Shown piece by piece: positions 3,210-61,322 of a DNA stretch of 64,000 bases. The stretch's first letter is position 1; each line of letters begins with the position of its first letter. The notes under the pieces were generated by a model. The model was not told the origin of the DNA and ran no database searches. It was given only the letters and a program-made list of their open reading frames with translations. The DNA comes from a bacterium (GTDB taxonomy: Bacteria; Patescibacteriota; Minisyncoccia; UBA6257; HR35). The DNA is taken from positions 38,101-102,100 of the forward strand of contig JBEQAR010000002.1 of NCBI GenBank assembly GCA_041640295.1, given 5' to 3'. Both the position numbers and the translations under genes were made by a program.

Positions 3210-3324
3210 GCTTTGCGGTACCTACTCTCGCGCCTTATCGGCACTACCATCGGCGCTAAGCCGTTTCACCTGCTTGTTCGGAATGGGTAAGGGTGTTTCC
3301 AGCTTAGCTATGCAACCACAAAGC
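3210..3324 (-). rRNA. rrf: 5S ribosomal RNA. It is an orphan, with no 23S gene adjacent.
   Basis: A GC-rich island sits in AT-rich DNA. Its reverse complement reads GCUUUGUGGUUGCAUAGCUAAGCUGGAAACACCCUUACCCAUUCCGAACAAGCAGGUGAAACGGCUUAGCGCCGAUGGUAGUGCCGAUAAGGCGCGAGAGUAGGUACCGCAAAGC. This contains the conserved 5S blocks CCGAAC, GUGAAAC, AGCGCCGAUGGUAGUG and GCGAGAGUAGG. The 5' and 3' ends pair over 10 bp to form helix I. Confidence 0.85.
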
Positions 3325-3339
3325 AATTTAATTATAAAA

Positions 3340-3765
3340 TTAAAATAATTTTTTTTCAAATATAATACTTTTTACTAATTTATCAGCTAATTTATTTTCT
3401 TCCCGAGGAATAATTTTTATTTCTAATAAAGGAAAATCAATTTTTAAATTCCAAAACTTAATAAATAATTTTTGTAATCTTTCCTCTTTTATTTTATATT
3501 TACCTAATAACTGATTACCAACCAATTCACTATCTAAATGAATAATTATTTTATTTGTTTTTATTTCCTTTTTCCCAAGAAGTTGTTTTAATTTTTTAAG
3601 AGCAAAGATAACCGCCAAATACTCCGCTTCATTATTGGTGATATTTTCTACCCTAACTTTATATAATTTATTTTTATTATTAATCATAATCACTACTCCC
3701 AACGCACCAATTCCATTTTCATTAATTACACCACCATCGGTCCAAACTTTTATTTCTTTTACCAT
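3340..3765 (-). CDS. rnhA: Ribonuclease HI
   Basis: The protein is 141 aa and has the RNase H motifs WTDGG, NNEAEYLA, HLDSELV and REENKLAD. Confidence 0.8.
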   Translation of the reverse strand: MVKEIKVWTDGGVINENGIGALGVVIMINNKNKLYKVRVENITNNEAEYLAVIFALKKLKQLLGKKEIKTNKIIIHLDSELVGNQLLGKYKIKEERLQKLFIKFWNLKIDFPLLEIKIIPREENKLADKLVKSIIFEKKLF

Positions 3766-55226: not shown

Positions 55227-56605
55227 AGCGGTTCAATTAATTTAGCTAATTCAAAAATTTTATATTCATCAAAAATATTCCCAATAACCTGAAGACCAAC
55301 AGGCAAATTATCTAAAAAACCAATAGGTATATTTAAGGCAGGTAAACCAGCTAAATTCGCCGGAATAGTGAAAATGTCTGATAAATACATTTCTAATGGA
55401 TTAGTAATTTTTTCTCCTAACTTAAAGGGTAAGGTAGGTGAAGTTGGTGCAATAATTAAGTCAACCTTTTTAAATGCATTCTGAAAATCTTCATAAATTG
55501 CCTTTCTTAATTTTTGAGCTTGAAGATAATAAGCTTCATAATAACCATGAGAAAGAACAAAAGTTCCAAGAATAATTCTTCTTTTTACTTCTTTGCCTAA
55601 AAATTTATCTCGGCTTAATTTATATATTTTCCAAAAATCGTTATTAACTACTCTCTGTCCATATCTAATGCCATCATATCTAGCTAAATTTGCACTGACT
55701 TCAGATGGCATCAAGATATAATAACAATGAATAGCATATTTAACATATTCTAAAGAAATTTCTTCAATATCGAAAGGTAATTTTTCTATTTTTTTTAAAA
55801 TTAAATTTTTAATCTTAACATCAAGGTTATCAAAGAATTCTTTCGGTAAGCCTATTTTTTCTATTTTGGTATCATTTATTTTCTCTTCAGGAAAACTAAC
55901 GCTTGTTGAATCTTTATTATCCTTTCCCCTTATTATATTAAAAAGCAAAATTAAATCATCTAAATTTCGAGCCATCGGACCTATTTGATCCAAAGAAGAA
56001 GCCATAGCAATTAAACCATATCGAGAAACAACTCCGTAAGTTGGTTTAAGTCCATAAATTCCGCAAAATCCAGCTGGTTGACGAATAGAACCACCAGTAT
56101 CAGATCCTAAAGCGACGGGTATTAACCCAGCACCAACCACAGCTGCTGATCCTCCCGATGAACCACCCGGAGTTCTTTGATTATCAAATGGGTTATAAGT
56201 TAATTGATAGGCAGAGTTTTCAGTTGAAGAGCCCATTGCAAATTCATCTAAATTAGTTTTACCAACAATCACTCCACCAGCTTGAATTATTTTTTCAACA
56301 ACTGTTGCATTATAAGGAGCAATATAATTTTCTAAAATTTTTGAACCAGCAGTACATTTTTCTCCCTTAACCAAGATATTATCTTTAATAGCAATTGGAA
56401 CACCATAAAGCGGTAATTCATCTGCGTTTTTATTTTTTAATTTATGAATTAATTCAAAAGCTAAATTTTCAGTAAAAAAAAGAAAGGCATTTAAATTTTC
56501 CTCTTTTTTCAACCACTCAAAATAATTTTTATAAAAATTTTCCAAACCTATTTTCCCTATAATTTTTTTTATATCAGAAATAGCCAAATTTCTAAAATTT
56601 TCCAT
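55223..56605 (-). CDS. gatA: Glu-tRNA(Gln) amidotransferase subunit A (amidase signature family)
   Basis: The amidase signature GGSSGGSAAVVGAGLIPVALGSDTGGSIRQPAGFCGIYGLKPTYG is nearly identical to GatA. No gatB or gatC is adjacent. Confidence 0.8.
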   Translation of the reverse strand: MENFRNLAISDIKKIIGKIGLENFYKNYFEWLKKEENLNAFLFFTENLAFELIHKLKNKNADELPLYGVPIAIKDNILVKGEKCTAGSKILENYIAPYNATVVEKIIQAGGVIVGKTNLDEFAMGSSTENSAYQLTYNPFDNQRTPGGSSGGSAAVVGAGLIPVALGSDTGGSIRQPAGFCGIYGLKPTYGVVSRYGLIAMASSLDQIGPMARNLDDLILLFNIIRGKDNKDSTSVSFPEEKINDTKIEKIGLPKEFFDNLDVKIKNLILKKIEKLPFDIEEISLEYVKYAIHCYYILMPSEVSANLARYDGIRYGQRVVNNDFWKIYKLSRDKFLGKEVKRRIILGTFVLSHGYYEAYYLQAQKLRKAIYEDFQNAFKKVDLIIAPTSPTLPFKLGEKITNPLEMYLSDIFTIPANLAGLPALNIPIGFLDNLPVGLQVIGNIFDEYKIFELAKLIEPL

Positions 56606-56640
56606 AAATATTTTTATTTTGAAATTTTTTATCTAATTTG

Positions 56641-56712
56641 AGCGGCGGACGGGATTTGAACCCGCGGCCTCCTGCATGGCAAGCAGGCGTTCTACCACTG
56701 AACTACCGCCGC
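56641..56712 (-). tRNA. tRNA-Gly (anticodon GCC)
   Basis: The reverse complement reads GCGGCGGUAGUUCAGUGGUAGAACGCCUGCUUGCCAUGCAGGAGGCCGCGGGUUCAAAUCCCGUCCGCCGCU. The anticodon loop is UUGCCAU. Confidence 0.9.
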
Positions 56713-56823
56713 TTTTTAGATGTATTATTTTAATTTAATTTTATAATAATTATATCATCATACCTTAAAAATTATTATAATTTATAAATTAAAAAATTTA
56801 GAAATAGAGAAAACACAAAACAA

Positions 56824-57687
56824 ATGATCGAAGAACTTCATGACGAAAAAGTAAAGTTTTTAGAAGAGAAGGCGAATGAAATAAGGCAGTTAATAATTGA
56901 GATGCTTTTAGAAGCTGGCTCAGGCCACTCTGCTGGACCACTTGGTATGGCTGATATTTTTTCTGCTTTTTATTTTCATATTTTGCGTCACGATCCTAAA
57001 AACCCCGACTGGGAAGATAGAGATAGATTAGTTTTATCAAATGGTCATATTTGCCCGGTTCGTTATGCAGCAATGGCACTTACTGGTTATTTTCCTGTTG
57101 AAGAATTAAAGACACTAAGAAAAATTAATACGCGGCTTCAAGGTCATCCTCACCGGACCGCTCTTCCTGGAGTTGAAACAACATCTGGTCCACTTGGTGA
57201 AGGAATCTCTCAAGCTATTGGTATGGCTATTGCTGGAAAACTTGATAAAAAAGATTACCATGTCTATTGTATAACTTCTGACGGTGAGCATCAAGAAGGA
57301 AATACCTGGGAAGCTTATATGTTCTTGGGCAAAAATCAACTTGATAATTTAACAATAATCATTGATAGAAACTATATTCAAATTGATGGAGTAACTGAAG
57401 ATGTTATGCCACTTGAACCATTAAAGCAGAAATTAGAAAGTTTCGGACTTCATGTTTTAGAAGTTGATGGTCATAATATTCGAGCTTTTGTTGATGCTAT
57501 AAGAGAAGCAAGATCAGAATGGCGAAGAACTTCGGTAATTATTGCTTATACAATTCCGGGCAAAGGAGTTGATTTTATGGAAAAGAAATTTGAATGGCAC
57601 GGTAAACCACCCAACAAAGAAGAAGCCAAAAAAGCCTTAGATGAACTAAGAACCTTAGGAGGCAAAATTCAAAGTGAACATCAATAA
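56824..57687 (+). CDS. Transketolase, N-terminal (TPP-binding) subunit
   Basis: It has GSGHSAGPLGMADI and the TPP motif SDGEHQEGNTWEA. At 287 aa it has the typical size for a split transketolase. Confidence 0.85.
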   Translation: MIEELHDEKVKFLEEKANEIRQLIIEMLLEAGSGHSAGPLGMADIFSAFYFHILRHDPKNPDWEDRDRLVLSNGHICPVRYAAMALTGYFPVEELKTLRKINTRLQGHPHRTALPGVETTSGPLGEGISQAIGMAIAGKLDKKDYHVYCITSDGEHQEGNTWEAYMFLGKNQLDNLTIIIDRNYIQIDGVTEDVMPLEPLKQKLESFGLHVLEVDGHNIRAFVDAIREARSEWRRTSVIIAYTIPGKGVDFMEKKFEWHGKPPNKEEAKKALDELRTLGGKIQSEHQ

Positions 57688-57755
57688 ACGCGAATGCTTG
57701 TGAATAAGATAATGTTCAATTTGTTTTATATGATAATCTGGTATAATTAAATAAA

Positions 57756-57926
57756 ATGTTAAAAACAGAAAATAAAAAAATATTAAGAACTAGATACCCA
57801 AAAGCTACGACGAAAGAATATACTGCAAAATGGGATAAATTTTTAGAATTAGGTAAAAAATTAAATAAATTTTGGAAAACAGATAAAACATTTCTAGAAA
57901 TTTTAAAAGAAGAAAGAATAAAATAA
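57756..57926 (+). CDS. Putative antitoxin partner of the downstream PIN toxin (56 aa)
   Basis: This small ORF ends 1 nt before the PIN gene start. It has no recognisable fold, so the call rests on its position only. Confidence 0.35.
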   Translation: MLKTENKKILRTRYPKATTKEYTAKWDKFLELGKKLNKFWKTDKTFLEILKEERIK

Positions 57927-57927
57927 A

Positions 57928-58332
57928 ATGTACTGTCTCGATGCTAGTGTAATTGTAAGTAGTCAATTAAAAAAAGAAGTATTCTATTTTCAAAGTAAAA
58001 GATTTTTAGAGCGAGTCAAAAGAGAAAAGATTAAAATTTTTTTACCTGAAATTGTCATTCCTGAAATAATTTCAGGAGTTTTTAGAGGTACGCAAAATAA
58101 GAAATTAACTTTAGAATTTGTATCTCTATTAAGAGAATTACCTAATTTTTTATTTATTCCGGTAGATGCTAAATTATCTAATCTTGCTGGATCTATAATT
58201 ACAGAAACAGGCTTAAAAGCCAATGATGCTATTTATGTAGCTTTAGCCTATGATTATGATTTAGAATTAATTACTCTTGATAAGGACCAATTAGAAAAAG
58301 GTAAAAAATTTGTAAAAACTAGAATGCCTTAA
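57928..58332 (+). CDS. PIN-domain (VapC-like) toxin
   Basis: The protein is 134 aa. The four acidic PIN residues are in register (LDASVIV, LPEIVIPE, NDAIYVALA, LITLDKD). Confidence 0.7.
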   Translation: MYCLDASVIVSSQLKKEVFYFQSKRFLERVKREKIKIFLPEIVIPEIISGVFRGTQNKKLTLEFVSLLRELPNFLFIPVDAKLSNLAGSIITETGLKANDAIYVALAYDYDLELITLDKDQLEKGKKFVKTRMP

Positions 58333-58333
58333 A

Positions 58334-58444
58334 ATGCTAAATCCAGAACTTAAATTAAATCCAAAAATTTTTTAAGAAGCGGAGCAAAAGTCGATAAGAG
58401 ATGGTTATGGTGATGCTTTAGTTGAATTCGGTGAGAAAAATTAA
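58334..58444 (+). pseudogene. Decayed duplicate of the 5' end of the transketolase C-terminal subunit gene
   Basis: Positions 58334-58371 are identical to 59092-59129 (atgctaaatccagaacttaaattaaatccaaaaatttt). Then comes an indel and a premature TAA, and then the identical block agatggttatggtgatgctttagttgaa. Confidence 0.6.
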
Positions 58445-58565
58445 TAAAGGTCTTTGTTATTAAAAAGTATAAGAGAATTACTAAAAGATAAAACTTTAGT
58501 ACTTGAAAATTTTAACCAGAAAGTGATCCTTGGGTCTGTCTTAATTAATGTTATAATTTAATATC

Positions 58566-58799
58566 ATGAAGAAAAAAATTTACAATTATACAGCCATTTT
58601 TGAAAAAAATGAATTAGGCGGATATACTGTTATTGTTCCTGCATTGCCCGGTTTGGTTACTGAAGGAAATGATTTAATAGAAGCAAAGAAAAATGCTGAA
58701 GAAGCTATTAGATGCTATCTAGAAGGTTTATTAAAAGATAAGAAAAAGATTCCTGAAGAAAAAGAAATTGCTCAGATGAGGCTTGAAATCAAAATTTAA
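58566..58799 (+). CDS. hicB: HicB-family antitoxin
   Basis: The sequence YTAIFEKNELGGYTVIVPALPGLVTEGNDLIEAKKNAEEAIRCYLE matches the HicB N-terminal domain pattern Y.A.FE...GGY.V.VPDLPGC.T.G.T.EEA...A.EAI. Confidence 0.75.
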   Translation: MKKKIYNYTAIFEKNELGGYTVIVPALPGLVTEGNDLIEAKKNAEEAIRCYLEGLLKDKKKIPEEKEIAQMRLEIKI

Positions 58800-59042
58800 A
58801 TGCCTAAATTACCGAGAATTTCTTCACAAAAATTAATAAAAGCTTTATTAAAATTAGGATTTTATATACATCATCAAGTAGGCAGTCATATTCATTTAAA
58901 ACATTTCTCTAAGACTCATTTAAGAGTAGTTATTCCAGCTAAAAGAGAATCATTATCTCCCAAAACTTTAAAATCAATATTAGTTCAGGCAGAGATTACA
59001 ATAGAAGATTTAAAGAAAGTTATTATAATTAATAGAAAATAA
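58800..59042 (+). CDS. hicA: HicA-family mRNA interferase toxin
   Basis: It has the HicA motif (L)LKLGF...QVGSHIHLKH and a C-terminal ...TLKSILVQAEI. It starts immediately after hicB. Confidence 0.75.
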   Translation: MPKLPRISSQKLIKALLKLGFYIHHQVGSHIHLKHFSKTHLRVVIPAKRESLSPKTLKSILVQAEITIEDLKKVIIINRK

Positions 59043-59091
59043 AGATTAATAGAAAATAAATATTTTTTTAATTAGAATTTTTTTAACACAA

Positions 59092-60546
59092 ATGCTAAAT
59101 CCAGAACTTAAATTAAATCCAAAAATTTTTGATCAAGATGTTGAGCAAAAGCCGATAAGAGATGGTTATGGTGATGCTTTAGTTGAACTTGGAGAAAAAA
59201 ATCCTAATGTTGTTGTTTTAACGGCTGATTTGGCTGAATCAACAAGAGCTCATAAGTTTGCCGAGAAATGGCCAGAAAGATTTATTGAGTGCGGAGTTGC
59301 TGAACAAAATATGGCGGGAATTGCTGCTGGCCTTGCTGTTTCTGGAAAAATTCCTTTTATTTCTTCTTATGCAACTTTTTCTCCTGGTAAAAACTGGGAA
59401 ACAATAAGAACAACAATAATATATAATGATGCAAATGTAAAAATTGCAGGCCATCATTCTGGAATTGTTACTGGTCCTGATGGGGCTACGCACCAGGCAA
59501 CAGAGGATATTGCTATTACAAGATGTTTGCCAAATATAAAAGTTATTTCTCCGTGTGATTACTTCGAAGCAAAAAAAGCAACTTTATATTCAGCTGAAAC
59601 TTATGGACCATTTTATATAAGATATGTAAGAGATAAAACGCCAGTAATTACTACTGAAGAAACACCGTTTAGATTTGGAAAGATTGAATGTTTTTGGTTA
59701 CCGCGGATTAACACGGATAAGACACGGATTGACGCGGATGATGCACGAATAGATGCGGATAAAAATTTATTATATGAGGATTTGACTTATCAATTGAGAA
59801 ATATATTTTTTACAGTATATAACAAAGTAGGAGGTGGTCATAAGGAAATAATTTATAAAAATAGTGTAGAAAATGAGTTAAAAGGTAGAGGGATCAGTTA
59901 TTCAAGGGAACCGGCAATAGAAATAAAGTATAAAGATCAAGCAGCAGGAGTATATAGACCAGATTTTATTATAGATGGAAAAATAATAATTGAAATTAAA
60001 GCTGATAGAAAATTAATCAAAGAGCACATACGTCAAGCCTTTTCTTATCTAAAAGCATCTCCGTATAAATTACTCTTGCTTGTAAATTTTGGATATACAA
60101 AGCTAGAAATAAAAAGGTTTATAGATATGAAAAAATCTAATCCGCGTGAATCCGTGTTCATAGATCCGCGTAGATCCGCGGTAGCTATTTTTTCGACGGG
60201 GCATTTGGTTTATCAAGCGCTGCTTGCAGCTAAAGAATTAGAAGAAGAGGGAATCGATATTTGCGTTTTAAATGTTCATACAATAAAGCCCTTAGATGAA
60301 GAAAAAATTTTAGACGTTGCCAGTAAAGTTAAAGGGATTGTTACCTTGGAGGATCATCAGGTACACGGTGGATTAGGAAGTGCCATTGCTGAAGTCATTG
60401 TTCAAAAAAGTGAGTCTAAACCAAAAATGCTCTTTCTTGGTCTTCAAGATACTTTTGGTGAATCAGGAAAACCTGATGAATTAATCAAAAAATACGGAAT
60501 GGATAAGGAAGCTGTTAAAAATGCTGTTAAAAAATTATTATCTTAA
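59092..60546 (+). CDS. Transketolase C-terminal (Pyr plus C-terminal domain) subunit carrying an in-frame insertion of about 160 aa
   Basis: The N-terminal part (GVAEQNMAGIAAGLAVSGKIPF, HHSGIVTGPDGATHQ) and the C-terminal part (AVAIFSTGHLV...NVHTIKPLDEE) are colinear with transketolase C subunits. The segment between FRFGKIE and AVAIFSTG is foreign. It carries GGGHKEIIY (GxxExxY) and DFIIDGKIIIEIKA (D...ExK). Confidence 0.8.
   Translation: MLNPELKLNPKIFDQDVEQKPIRDGYGDALVELGEKNPNVVVLTADLAESTRAHKFAEKWPERFIECGVAEQNMAGIAAGLAVSGKIPFISSYATFSPGKNWETIRTTIIYNDANVKIAGHHSGIVTGPDGATHQATEDIAITRCLPNIKVISPCDYFEAKKATLYSAETYGPFYIRYVRDKTPVITTEETPFRFGKIECFWLPRINTDKTRIDADDARIDADKNLLYEDLTYQLRNIFFTVYNKVGGGHKEIIYKNSVENELKGRGISYSREPAIEIKYKDQAAGVYRPDFIIDGKIIIEIKADRKLIKEHIRQAFSYLKASPYKLLLLVNFGYTKLEIKRFIDMKKSNPRESVFIDPRRSAVAIFSTGHLVYQALLAAKELEEEGIDICVLNVHTIKPLDEEKILDVASKVKGIVTLEDHQVHGGLGSAIAEVIVQKSESKPKMLFLGLQDTFGESGKPDELIKKYGMDKEAVKNAVKKLLS
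59701..60181 (+). mobile_element. In-frame insertion element inside the transketolase C-terminal gene, bounded by GC-rich imperfect terminal inverted repeats
   Basis: The left arm is ccgcggattaacacggataagacacggattgacgcggat.... The right arm is ...atccgcgtgaatccgtgttcatagatccgcgtagatccgcgg. The reverse complement of the right arm shares ccgcggat and acacggatt(g/c)acgcggat with the left arm. GC content is locally high in an AT-rich gene. The element encodes the GxxExxY/PD-(D/E)XK-like module. Confidence 0.45.
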
Positions 60547-60589
60547 ATATTATGTTCTCATTAGTCCATAGGAAAAAAATTTAAAAAAA

Positions 60590-60770
60590 GATTATTAAAC
60601 TATACAATAATTTTAGAACCAGCCGAAGAAAGTGGTTATGTTGTTATTTACCAGCTTTGCCAGGCTGTGTTACACAAGGAGGTACATTTTAAGAAGCTTT
60701 AGAAATTGCTAAAGATGCTATTTGGGGATATTTAGAATTTTTAAAACTATTAAAAGAATAATTATATTAT
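60590..60770 (+). pseudogene. HicB antitoxin pseudogene, disrupted by a frameshift and a nonsense codon
   Basis: Two frames together read NYTIILEPAEESGYVVIY / PALPGCVTQGGTF*EALEIAKDAIWGYLEFLK. This is colinear with the HicB at 58566 and with the HicB consensus. It has no start codon and no hicA partner. Confidence 0.55.
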
Positions 60771-61040
60771 TAATATAAAAATATAGAATGCCTATTCTAA
60801 AAATTTACACGCTTCAGTATAATTAATATCATTTATTTTTATAATACCAGGCTTTTTACTAATTTAGTTTTATTATCTTAATAAATAAAATTTAAAATCT
60901 CCTTATTCATTAATGTTTATCATAATTAAAATTTTAAAAACGTGGATTTTTATTTGAATTTTAAAATTAAGCGAAAATAGGGTAAAATTAATTTGAAATA
61001 GTTAAAAATAAAGGTCGTTAATTAAATTTATTTTATAAAA

Positions 61041-61322
61041 ATGGTTATTTCGGTAATAAAAAGCGATGGTAATGTAGAAGATTTCAATATCGCTAAACTA
61101 AAAAAATCAATTGAAAATGCAGCTTTGGATGCTGGTTATGAAGAAGATAAAGTATTTCAAATTGTTGAGGATGTTAGCCAATATGTTTTAGAATCAATTA
61201 ATGATTTAGAAAGAGTTGATACAAAATCTATCAGAGATTTGATTTTAAATAAACTTGATCAAGATTATCCTAATATTGCTAAAGCTTGGCGTGATTATGA
61301 CTCTCAAGTAAAAAATCAATGA
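61041..61322 (+). CDS. Stand-alone ATP-cone domain protein
   Basis: The 93-aa sequence VIKSDGNVEDFNIAKLKKSIENA... fits the ATP-cone pattern (V.KR.G..E.F...KI...I). It overlaps the start of the downstream oxidase gene. Confidence 0.5.
   Translation: MVISVIKSDGNVEDFNIAKLKKSIENAALDAGYEEDKVFQIVEDVSQYVLESINDLERVDTKSIRDLILNKLDQDYPNIAKAWRDYDSQVKNQ

Follow-up and report, generated by a model that had tools for sequence, protein, structure and literature searches.

A candidate mobile nuclease cassette carried in frame inside a transketolase gene, at a split operon with layered toxin-antitoxin genes, in an uncultured member of the Patescibacteria

We analyzed a 64,000-nucleotide (nt) stretch of bacterial DNA (the window; GenBank assembly GCA_041640295.1, contig JBEQAR010000002.1, positions 38,101 to 102,100 of the forward strand; GC content 27.6%), whose host genome is of the Parcubacteria/Paceibacteria type and uncultured. 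It holds a split transketolase operon, flanked by gatA (minus strand), a tRNA-Gly gene and an ATP-cone/FAD-oxidase gene pair, in which tktN encodes the N-terminal, thiamine diphosphate-binding subunit and tktC the C-terminal subunit. The 1404 nt between the two genes are taken up by a 56-amino-acid (aa) open reading frame (ORF56), a gene for a PIN-domain toxin, a decayed copy of the start of tktC and a hicB-hicA pair; a dead hicB-like gene follows tktC (Table 1). An earlier note on this DNA had read the region as a hotspot for the insertion of toxin-antitoxin (TA) cassettes. It placed the functional start of tktC correctly and overlooked an insertion within the gene itself: lying in frame in tktC is a cassette encoding a GxxExxY nuclease domain, which brings the gene to 484 aa against ~330. 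This cassette is our main subject, and the TA genes around it are taken up afterwards.

Table 1. Features of the transketolase region, with positions counted along the window
Feature	Positions	Strand	Basis or remark
tktN, transketolase N-terminal subunit	56824-57687	+	PF00456 Transketolase_N, E 2e-60
ORF56, presumed antitoxin partner of PIN	57756-57926	+	Position; conservation in L161
PIN-domain (VapC-like) toxin gene	57928-58332	+	PF01850, E 1e-16
Direct-repeat copy 1, decayed duplicate of first 111 nt of tktC (ATG at 58334)	58332-58444	+	
Inserted hicBA segment between the direct repeats, 645 nt	58445-59089	+	Absent from otherwise collinear L161
hicB antitoxin gene, 77 aa	58566-58799	+	PF15919, E 6e-12
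hicA toxin gene, 80 aa	58800-59042	+	PF07927, E 1.7e-14
Direct-repeat copy 2, functional tktC start	59090-59202	+	
tktC, transketolase C-terminal subunit, single 484-aa ORF	59092-60546	+	Three Pfam domains
Recombination patch in tktC, 15% diverged from L164	59326-59679	+	Ends 20 nt before the cassette
GxxExxY cassette, 485 nt, in frame in the Pyr/C-domain linker	59699-60183	+	L161 homology ends at 59697 and resumes at 60184
5' arm, CGGAT-type units, translated PRINTDKTRIDADDARIDADK	59699-59763	+	pLDDT <50, predicted disordered
GxxExxY PD-(D/E)XK nuclease core, aa 225-344 of tktC	59764-60123	+	PF13366, TIGR04256
3' arm, ATCCG-type units, translated ...NPRESVFIDPRRSA	60124-60183	+	Open in the host frame only
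hicB-like pseudogene: start lost, one frameshift, one in-frame TAA	60570-60762	+	

The product of tktC, which measures 325-335 aa in relatives, has three domains in the window: PF02779 (Transket_pyr, aa 22-183), PF13366 (aa 230-343) and PF02780 (Transketolase_C, aa 359-475). The closest uninterrupted tktC is that of locus L161 (95% and 92% aa identity to the window), where the corresponding empty site is the TTTTGGAAACCGCAG...GCTATTATGGC region. With slashes marking the borders, the cassette reads TA/CCGCGGAT...ATCCGCGG/TA, where the flanking TA might be a target duplication. It is framed by nested inverted repeats (59699-59739 and 60140-60183) that are GC-rich, at 51-55% against 27.6% for the genome, and that are predicted to pair over 58 base pairs (folding free energy, dG, -70.5 kcal/mol; terminal stem z = -4.05). 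The cassette ORF, fused to tktC at both ends, lacks its own start and stop codons. Through both arms, the host frame alone is open. The residues at the two cassette/host junctions, P/R and A/V, are different in other hosts. Exact-protein look-ups with the window's tktC product and with P0001 returned no record.

By profile matches and predicted structure, the insert domain is a member of the GxxExxY/PDDEXK_3 family with a PD-(D/E)XK fold. It scores 101.7 bits against PF13366 (E 4e-29; cut-off 22) and 102.9 bits against TIGR04256 (E 1.3e-29; cut-off 35), and it contains the GHKEIIY, RPDF and IEIK motifs; G43, E48, D87, E97 and K99 are invariant across 105 sequences, the window's included. AlphaFold2 modeled the nuclease domain alone with a predicted local distance difference test score (pLDDT) of 86, exceeding 90 in the core. 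In a model of the fusion the nuclease reached 76-92 and the arms stayed below 50, while the transketolase C-domain was unaffected. The nearest folds found by Foldseek were Cas4 (4ic1, E 2e-4), lambda exonuclease and Hjc. The GxxExxY/PF13366 family is listed with the function 'unknown', and fusions are named just 'GxxExxY protein'.

Genome and metagenome collections scanned with the Pyr domain of tktC gave 160 related loci. Since tktC genes were collected by tblastn with this domain alone, the sample carries no gene-call bias; 52 of the genes are complete, and all 52 are single intact ORFs. The position occupied in the window, site 1, bears a full cassette (161-185 aa) in 14 of them, and in the others it is empty (11-13 aa), reduced to a 15-aa footprint, or filled by an ORF-less hairpin of 18-60 aa. 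The footprints retain a 5' arm unit and the first nuclease codons (DKNL). A second site, in the C-domain, carries hairpin-only inserts of 22-89 aa made from the same arm units. Site 1 can be filled, empty or hairpin-only among close relatives, and a protein search likewise returned ~29 tktC clusters with an internal nuclease domain, interleaved with uninterrupted ones. The arm units vary by lineage yet stay complementary (CGGAT/ATCCG, CGAAC/GTTCG, CGGAC/GTCCG, CAGAC/GTCTG). Arms of 36-60 bp with a dG of -48 to -72 kcal/mol are present in 11 of 11 distinct full elements, and the hairpin-only forms reach -40 to -83.

The reading frame is kept throughout this variation. None of 32 distinct inserts has a stop in the host frame, and nearly all of the other frames have stops, up to 29. 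That the frame is kept in both the full and the ORF-less forms suggests that the ribosome reads through the insert, which would then stay in the protein. The nuclease core shows dN/dS of 0.04-0.16 and the host flanks of insert-bearing alleles 0.04-0.09, low values that argue for both remaining functional. One could suppose instead that the cassette is removed before the enzyme matures, either from the mRNA by hairpin excision and ligation, after the manner of 23S intervening sequences or bulge-helix-bulge processing, or from the protein by intein-like splicing. The arm stem would bring the host junctions together, RtcB, an RNA ligase, is among the genes that host such cassettes (see below), and inteins likewise lie in frame in housekeeping genes. 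However, under RNA excision there would be no pressure on the 3' arm or the hairpin remnants to stay stop-free in the host frame, as all 32 inserts do. An Rfam scan of 56500-61200 found only tRNA-Gly and no group I or II intron; in the insert we found no Hint/intein domain and no Cys/Ser/Thr or His-Asn residues at the junctions, PDDEXK_3 being its sole domain match. We therefore regard removal, by either route, as quite improbable, and favor an insert that stays in the protein.

Inserts and hosts have diverged to different extents, in both directions. L087 and L090 are 97% identical in their flanks (dS 0.18) and 68% in their inserts (dS 1.76); conversely, L082 and L087 have inserts at dS 0.00 in flanks at dS 0.28, and P0028 and L090 share 85% identity in the insert against 74% in the flanks. 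The window and P0016 are 90% identical in flanks and 42% in inserts. Neighbor-joining trees divide the tktC inserts into two clades, one of which falls within a group of free-standing genes; on the host tree, filled alleles occur dispersed among the empty ones, and the window is sister to the empty allele P0027. P0028 is itself a mosaic: its Pyr domain belongs to its own lineage, and another lineage supplied the insert together with the 70 aa that follow and the hairpin at site 2, which on sequence grounds is the pattern of co-conversion. A split methyltransferase gene in L087, considered as a possible out-of-frame cassette insertion, has only small indels and was set aside.

These comparisons bear on the possibility that the nuclease is a fixed, vertically inherited fusion with a role in transketolase that benefits the host. 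The insert is in frame and under strong purifying selection, and it is found in ~40 tktC sequences from different samples, all of which a fixed fusion would explain. Yet the nearest relatives (P0027/L161 and L001) have no insert, four allele states are interleaved on the host tree, insert and host divergence are decoupled both ways, and two unrelated insert clades occupy one site. The same cassette also turns up inside unrelated enzymes, where it frequently interrupts a catalytic domain, and free-standing copies have the same arms. A fixed fusion is thus very improbable, and we favor an insert that moves between alleles.

The window's own tktC bears traces of recombination. An independent JGI assembly, L164, has the same architecture and is 98.9% identical to the window across 5.6 kb without gaps; 54 of the 62 mismatches over this length fall in the tktC patch (Table 1) and 6 in a second patch in tktN (57480-57534). 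Within the tktC patch, the window is more aberrant than L164 when compared with L161. The patches are imported allele fragments, which suggests that homologous recombination, perhaps through natural transformation, is frequent in the population. The same assembly bears on whether the locus is an artefact of assembly or binning, a chimeric contig. The genome is metagenome-assembled and repeats can mis-assemble; against this stand the gap-free agreement with L164, ENA and NCBI fragments that match the window's architecture and cover its junctions, and dozens of independent assemblies with related cassettes. An artefact is scarcely credible, and we treat the architecture as real.

An exhaustive phmmer search over 1.84 billion representative proteins returned 7184 hits. 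Among the best 150, 52 are proteins of 300-907 aa, most of them with the domain in an internal position. According to Pfam, the insert splits a host domain in two in LepA, GatB, DHFR, GT2 and RtcB; further hosts include RecG (seven representatives), GT1/GT4, LeuRS, asparagine synthase (AsnB), a P-type ATPase, an O-antigen ligase (Wzy), an alpha/beta hydrolase and enolase. All eight embedded proteins whose sequences were read have the arm-core-arm peptide layout, and the DHFR and LepA loci, at 46-50% GC, carry the same CGCGGAT/ATCCGCG inverted arms in their DNA. Free-standing family members also carry translated arm fragments. A word-indexed search with the insert alone returned free-standing genes only and missed the embedded copies, including a 100% match. 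About 30 of the best 150 matches (250-280 aa; P0244, P0255, P0256, P0278, P0286-P0288, P0297-P0302 and others) contain two tandem GxxExxY domains. We found no description in the literature of in-frame mobile behavior of a GxxExxY cassette, although our coverage was incomplete and a prior account is possible.

The 64-kb window has one cassette, and relatives have the two tktC sites and a free-standing copy ~4 kb away; when 1.64 Mb of related loci were scanned for further embedded cassettes, only tktC copies and one free-standing locus came back. This second, free-standing GxxExxY gene belongs to a different subfamily (36-38% identical) and lies ~4 kb upstream of tktC (L006:1591-2070, L082:1986-2465, and in L088, L090-L092 and L098), and tktC at those loci carries group 1/2 cassettes.

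The surroundings of the cassette are conserved in gene order and variable at the tktN-tktC junction. The order gatA, tRNA-Gly, tktN, tktC, ATP-cone, FAD-oxidase recurs in L004 and L013. In 13 related loci tktN and tktC are 0-14 nt apart with no TA genes between them, among them the closest locus, L001 (96% and 94% aa identity to the window; tktN 96%). An accessory patch within an otherwise housekeeping stretch, as the earlier note had it, is therefore what the synteny comparison returns. The hotspot it proposed holds in part: the junction does vary among relatives, but not specifically through TA genes, as 16 related loci have the tktN-tktC gap filled by unrelated genes, mostly for membrane or secreted proteins. 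In many further loci tktN lies >5 kb from tktC. Upstream of the tktC region, L161 (1-606) and L005 (3814-5262) have a homologous large membrane/surface protein in place of tktN, so linkage between tktN and tktC is absent from several close relatives. The parcubacterial genome KatS3mg096 (BPJI01000001.1) has two tktN-tktC operons, L007 and L009, ~54 kb apart and with identical tktC starts; one is an adjacent pair and the other is split by a 405-aa ORF, and both have the 15-aa site-1 footprint.

Of the two TA layers the older is the PIN pair, which the earlier note had recognized as a small ORF coupled to a PIN toxin. Only 1 nt separates the ORF56 stop from the PIN ATG, and the acidic residues D5, E41, D100 and D118 of PIN, read from the sequence, are conserved in L161. 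There, too, ORF56 lies upstream of PIN; aa identity to the window is 61% for ORF56 (dN/dS 0.20) and 76% for PIN (dN/dS 0.14), values between two genomes that point to purifying selection on an older, conserved pair. The L161 order is ORF56-PIN-tktC, with a junction, CCTTAAAATGCT, identical to the window's and without hicBA, duplication or tktC insert; PIN is fused directly to the tktC start, its stop 1 nt before the tktC ATG. On this sequence comparison, the ORF56-PIN pair predates the hicBA insertion. NCBIfam and PADLOC gave zero matches for the TA proteins.

The hicB-hicA pair is likewise what the earlier note took it for, and the PIN, HicA and HicB models all matched their genes. The hicB stop abuts the hicA start, with hicB first. 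An identical HicA protein is found on 6 contigs from JGI, ENA and NCBI. The closest hicBA homologues, 73-81% identical, adjoin rplS or sit between rpoD and a reverse-gyrase gene, and the nearest, in L168 (81.5% nt identity), is homologous to the window in the two coding genes only. Such unrelated contexts suggest that the pair moves, though without recognizable transposon ends. A 17-nt tandem duplication (GATTAATAGAAAATAAA) at 59022-59060 spans the hicA stop and leaves HicA at 80 aa in the window, compared with 75 aa in its closest homologues. Between the tktC copy and hicB, a 35-aa ORF with a TTG start (58454-58561) matches no family and is unlikely to be a gene. Beside hicBA in L168 (880-905 and 1430-1450) are GTCTGCG and CGCGAA units resembling those of the cassette arms, and the neighboring genes there may hold coding hairpins.

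The decayed copy of the tktC start (copy 1) sits at the exact position of the real tktC start in L161, after the same PIN junction. Over its first 41 nt, including 2 bases before the ATG, it is identical to 59090-59130; beyond this it has a 3-nt gap, an in-frame TAA and about ten substitutions, for an overall identity of 99/114. Because copy 1 and the live start agree in 6 of 6 window-specific synonymous states relative to L161, and the differences of copy 1 are private, it is a genuine duplicate of the window's own tktC start that decayed later. We had also considered copy 1 as a remnant of another tktC allele, given its 3-nt gap and a Ser matching the L005, L014 and L015 variants, and this was overturned by the L161 comparison.

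How the repeat arose bears on whether the region is a TA-specific hotspot, in which the 111-nt repeat would be a long target duplication of a transposed hicBA and the dead hicB an earlier insertion at the same site. The direct repeats do flank hicBA exactly, the junction varies in relatives and hicBA contexts differ. Known transposases, however, make target duplications of 2-15 nt; the repeat, at 111-113 nt, is about ten times that length, and the segment has no transposase or integrase and no ends conserved with L168. The earlier note's target duplication is thus not borne out, and a recombinational origin appears to fit better, for example a single crossover of a circular fragment sharing nt 1-111 of tktC. 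Nor does repeated insertion at one site stand. The decayed hicB that the note had reported is indeed there, with HicB matches in two frames and ATA at the expected ATG position, and when repaired in silico it exceeds the PF15919 gathering threshold (E 1.7e-8); but it lies downstream of tktC and is of a different lineage, ~53% identical to the live hicB, and L005 has it in intact form as a solo hicB-like gene (3313-3525). No hicA remnant was found after it. With PIN older and membrane or secreted-protein genes in the relatives' gaps, a TA-specific hotspot is unlikely, and we favor separate arrivals at a permissive junction.

The junction between tktC and the ATP-cone gene is also variable. L004, L011, L081, L088 and L090 have a 423-aa TRAM/SAM-methyltransferase-like gene there, in some cases together with a 107-aa gene; the window has nothing but the dead hicB and a further 278 nt of non-coding DNA (15.5% GC). 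At the other end of the operon, 111 nt separate tktN from the tRNA-Gly(GCC) gene upstream of it (56640-56712, minus strand). Mobile DNA classically integrates at tRNA genes; we saw no integrase or att-like repeat at this one. A promoter and terminator scan carried no information in DNA this rich in AT, with 33 promoter-like sites where 23 were expected, and was discarded.

We consider it likely that the split transketolase operon bears a patch of selfish DNA in three layers: the PIN pair, hicBA and the in-frame nuclease cassette. In this sequence of events, a VapC-like PIN gene and its 56-aa partner would have been established first, directly upstream of tktC. A mobile hicB-hicA pair would then have entered 111 nt into tktC, duplicating those 111 nt, so that the downstream start stayed in working order while decay set in upstream; beyond tktC, a separate hicB-like gene would have died. 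As the third layer, the cassette would be read through by the ribosome, its arms forming disordered linkers and its nuclease an extra domain looped out from a functional enzyme. It would thus behave as a mobile, intein-like parasite of coding sequence that does not splice. Spread between tktC alleles at the same site would most likely occur by gene conversion, triggered by the nuclease or mediated by recombination, that drags flanks along, and the arms would be cis elements doubling as harmless linkers. Cassettes would decay to hairpin-only inserts, resembling MITEs (miniature transposable elements with inverted repeats), and to short footprints, with the frame kept throughout. Resolution of a cruciform by an Hjc-like activity was considered as a means of precise excision and rejected, as the topology would give hairpin-capped breaks and not an excised element.

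Several points weigh against this account. The trees are neighbor-joining trees without support values, and the incongruence and mosaics could reflect ordinary allele recombination, which is visibly frequent here, such that the nuclease need not cut an empty site. The 'empty' alleles have a different linker (SENPQ or KNENAK) and are not a clean excision product. There is one cassette in the 64-kb window, so for this organism transposition within a genome is no more than a possibility. Read-through, and tolerance of a 153-aa insert, are argued from frame conservation, selection and predicted structure. As for the TA genes, ORF56 has no match in Pfam, NCBIfam or PADLOC and matches no antitoxin family, and in the hicB product we detected a HicB-like fold only and no DNA-binding domain.

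A broader reading, which we advance tentatively and with slightly more doubt than confidence, is that GxxExxY cassettes are an unrecognized class of autonomous mobile elements living inside coding genes. Their PD-(D/E)XK nuclease would lie between palindromic arms constrained to encode stop-free, disordered linkers, so that the element is translated and not spliced out, and they would spread by nuclease-driven homing or transposition into the loops of essential enzymes, leaving coding hairpins behind. If true, a large family listed without a function would acquire one (7184 representative clusters matched). The TA island, by comparison, is ordinary: a well-dated set of addiction modules settled in a reduced genome, at an operon junction that tolerates them. 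The cassette points to a possible third mode of life for selfish DNA within essential genes, in addition to tiny palindromes and to self-splicing introns or inteins: bringing its own nuclease, having its ends encode harmless linkers and being tolerated as an extra domain. It offers the widespread GxxExxY/PF13366 family a testable function. The cassette would also explain oversized housekeeping proteins in Patescibacteria, a caution for annotators, and may be a source of site-specific nucleases and of permissive insertion sites for protein engineering.

Each layer can be set beside known systems. Like type II TA systems of the VapBC and HicAB types, the window has a PIN protein with a small upstream partner, abutting hicA and hicB domains, and mobility between contexts; it differs in a PIN partner that matches no known antitoxin family, in the hicB-hicA order and in a minimal HicB of 77 aa, and TA function is predicted from sequence. 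The 23S rRNA intervening sequences (S23p/four-helix-bundle) share with the cassette a small ORF within a long inverted-repeat stem in an essential gene, but are cut from a structural RNA by RNase III, whereas the cassette lies in an mRNA and keeps the frame. Repetitive extragenic palindromes and bacterial interspersed mosaic elements (REP/BIME) with their REP-associated tyrosine transposases (RAYTs), and IS200/IS605 elements, similarly pair a nuclease gene between inverted hairpin repeats with ORF-less hairpin derivatives; RAYTs, however, are HUH/Y1 enzymes with extragenic repeats, whereas the cassette encodes a PD-(D/E)XK domain and its repeats are coding.

Homing endonuclease genes, such as that of the PD-(D/E)XK enzyme I-Ssp6803I, come closer in occupying one site in a conserved gene with presence/absence polymorphism, horizontal spread and co-conversion of flanks; the cassette has no ribozyme, its ORF is fused to the host's, and its homing is a candidate activity suggested by sequence patterns. 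Inteins with nested homing endonucleases are also in-frame, nuclease-encoding inserts of housekeeping genes, sporadic and incongruent in distribution and with degenerate 'mini' forms, but the cassette lacks Hint and splice residues, its nuclease is PD-(D/E)XK and not LAGLIDADG or HNH, it has long inverted arms and it apparently stays in the protein. By analogy, the nearest described counterparts are the Rickettsia palindromic elements (RPEs), palindromic DNA found in frame in unrelated metabolic genes and translated as a tolerated extra peptide (PMC10969869). The hairpin-only tktC inserts at sites 1 and 2 look like RPEs or intragenic MITEs, with terminal inverted repeats and a kept frame. RPEs have no known cognate enzyme, whereas the window's copy and 13 others encode a PD-(D/E)XK nuclease under selection, predicted to form a folded domain of ~120 aa; here, moreover, the same site has been re-occupied in diverged alleles, and the hosts are Patescibacteria rather than Rickettsia. 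Among selfish elements carried in frame, the cassette is most aptly called a new variant, and it might be a new class.

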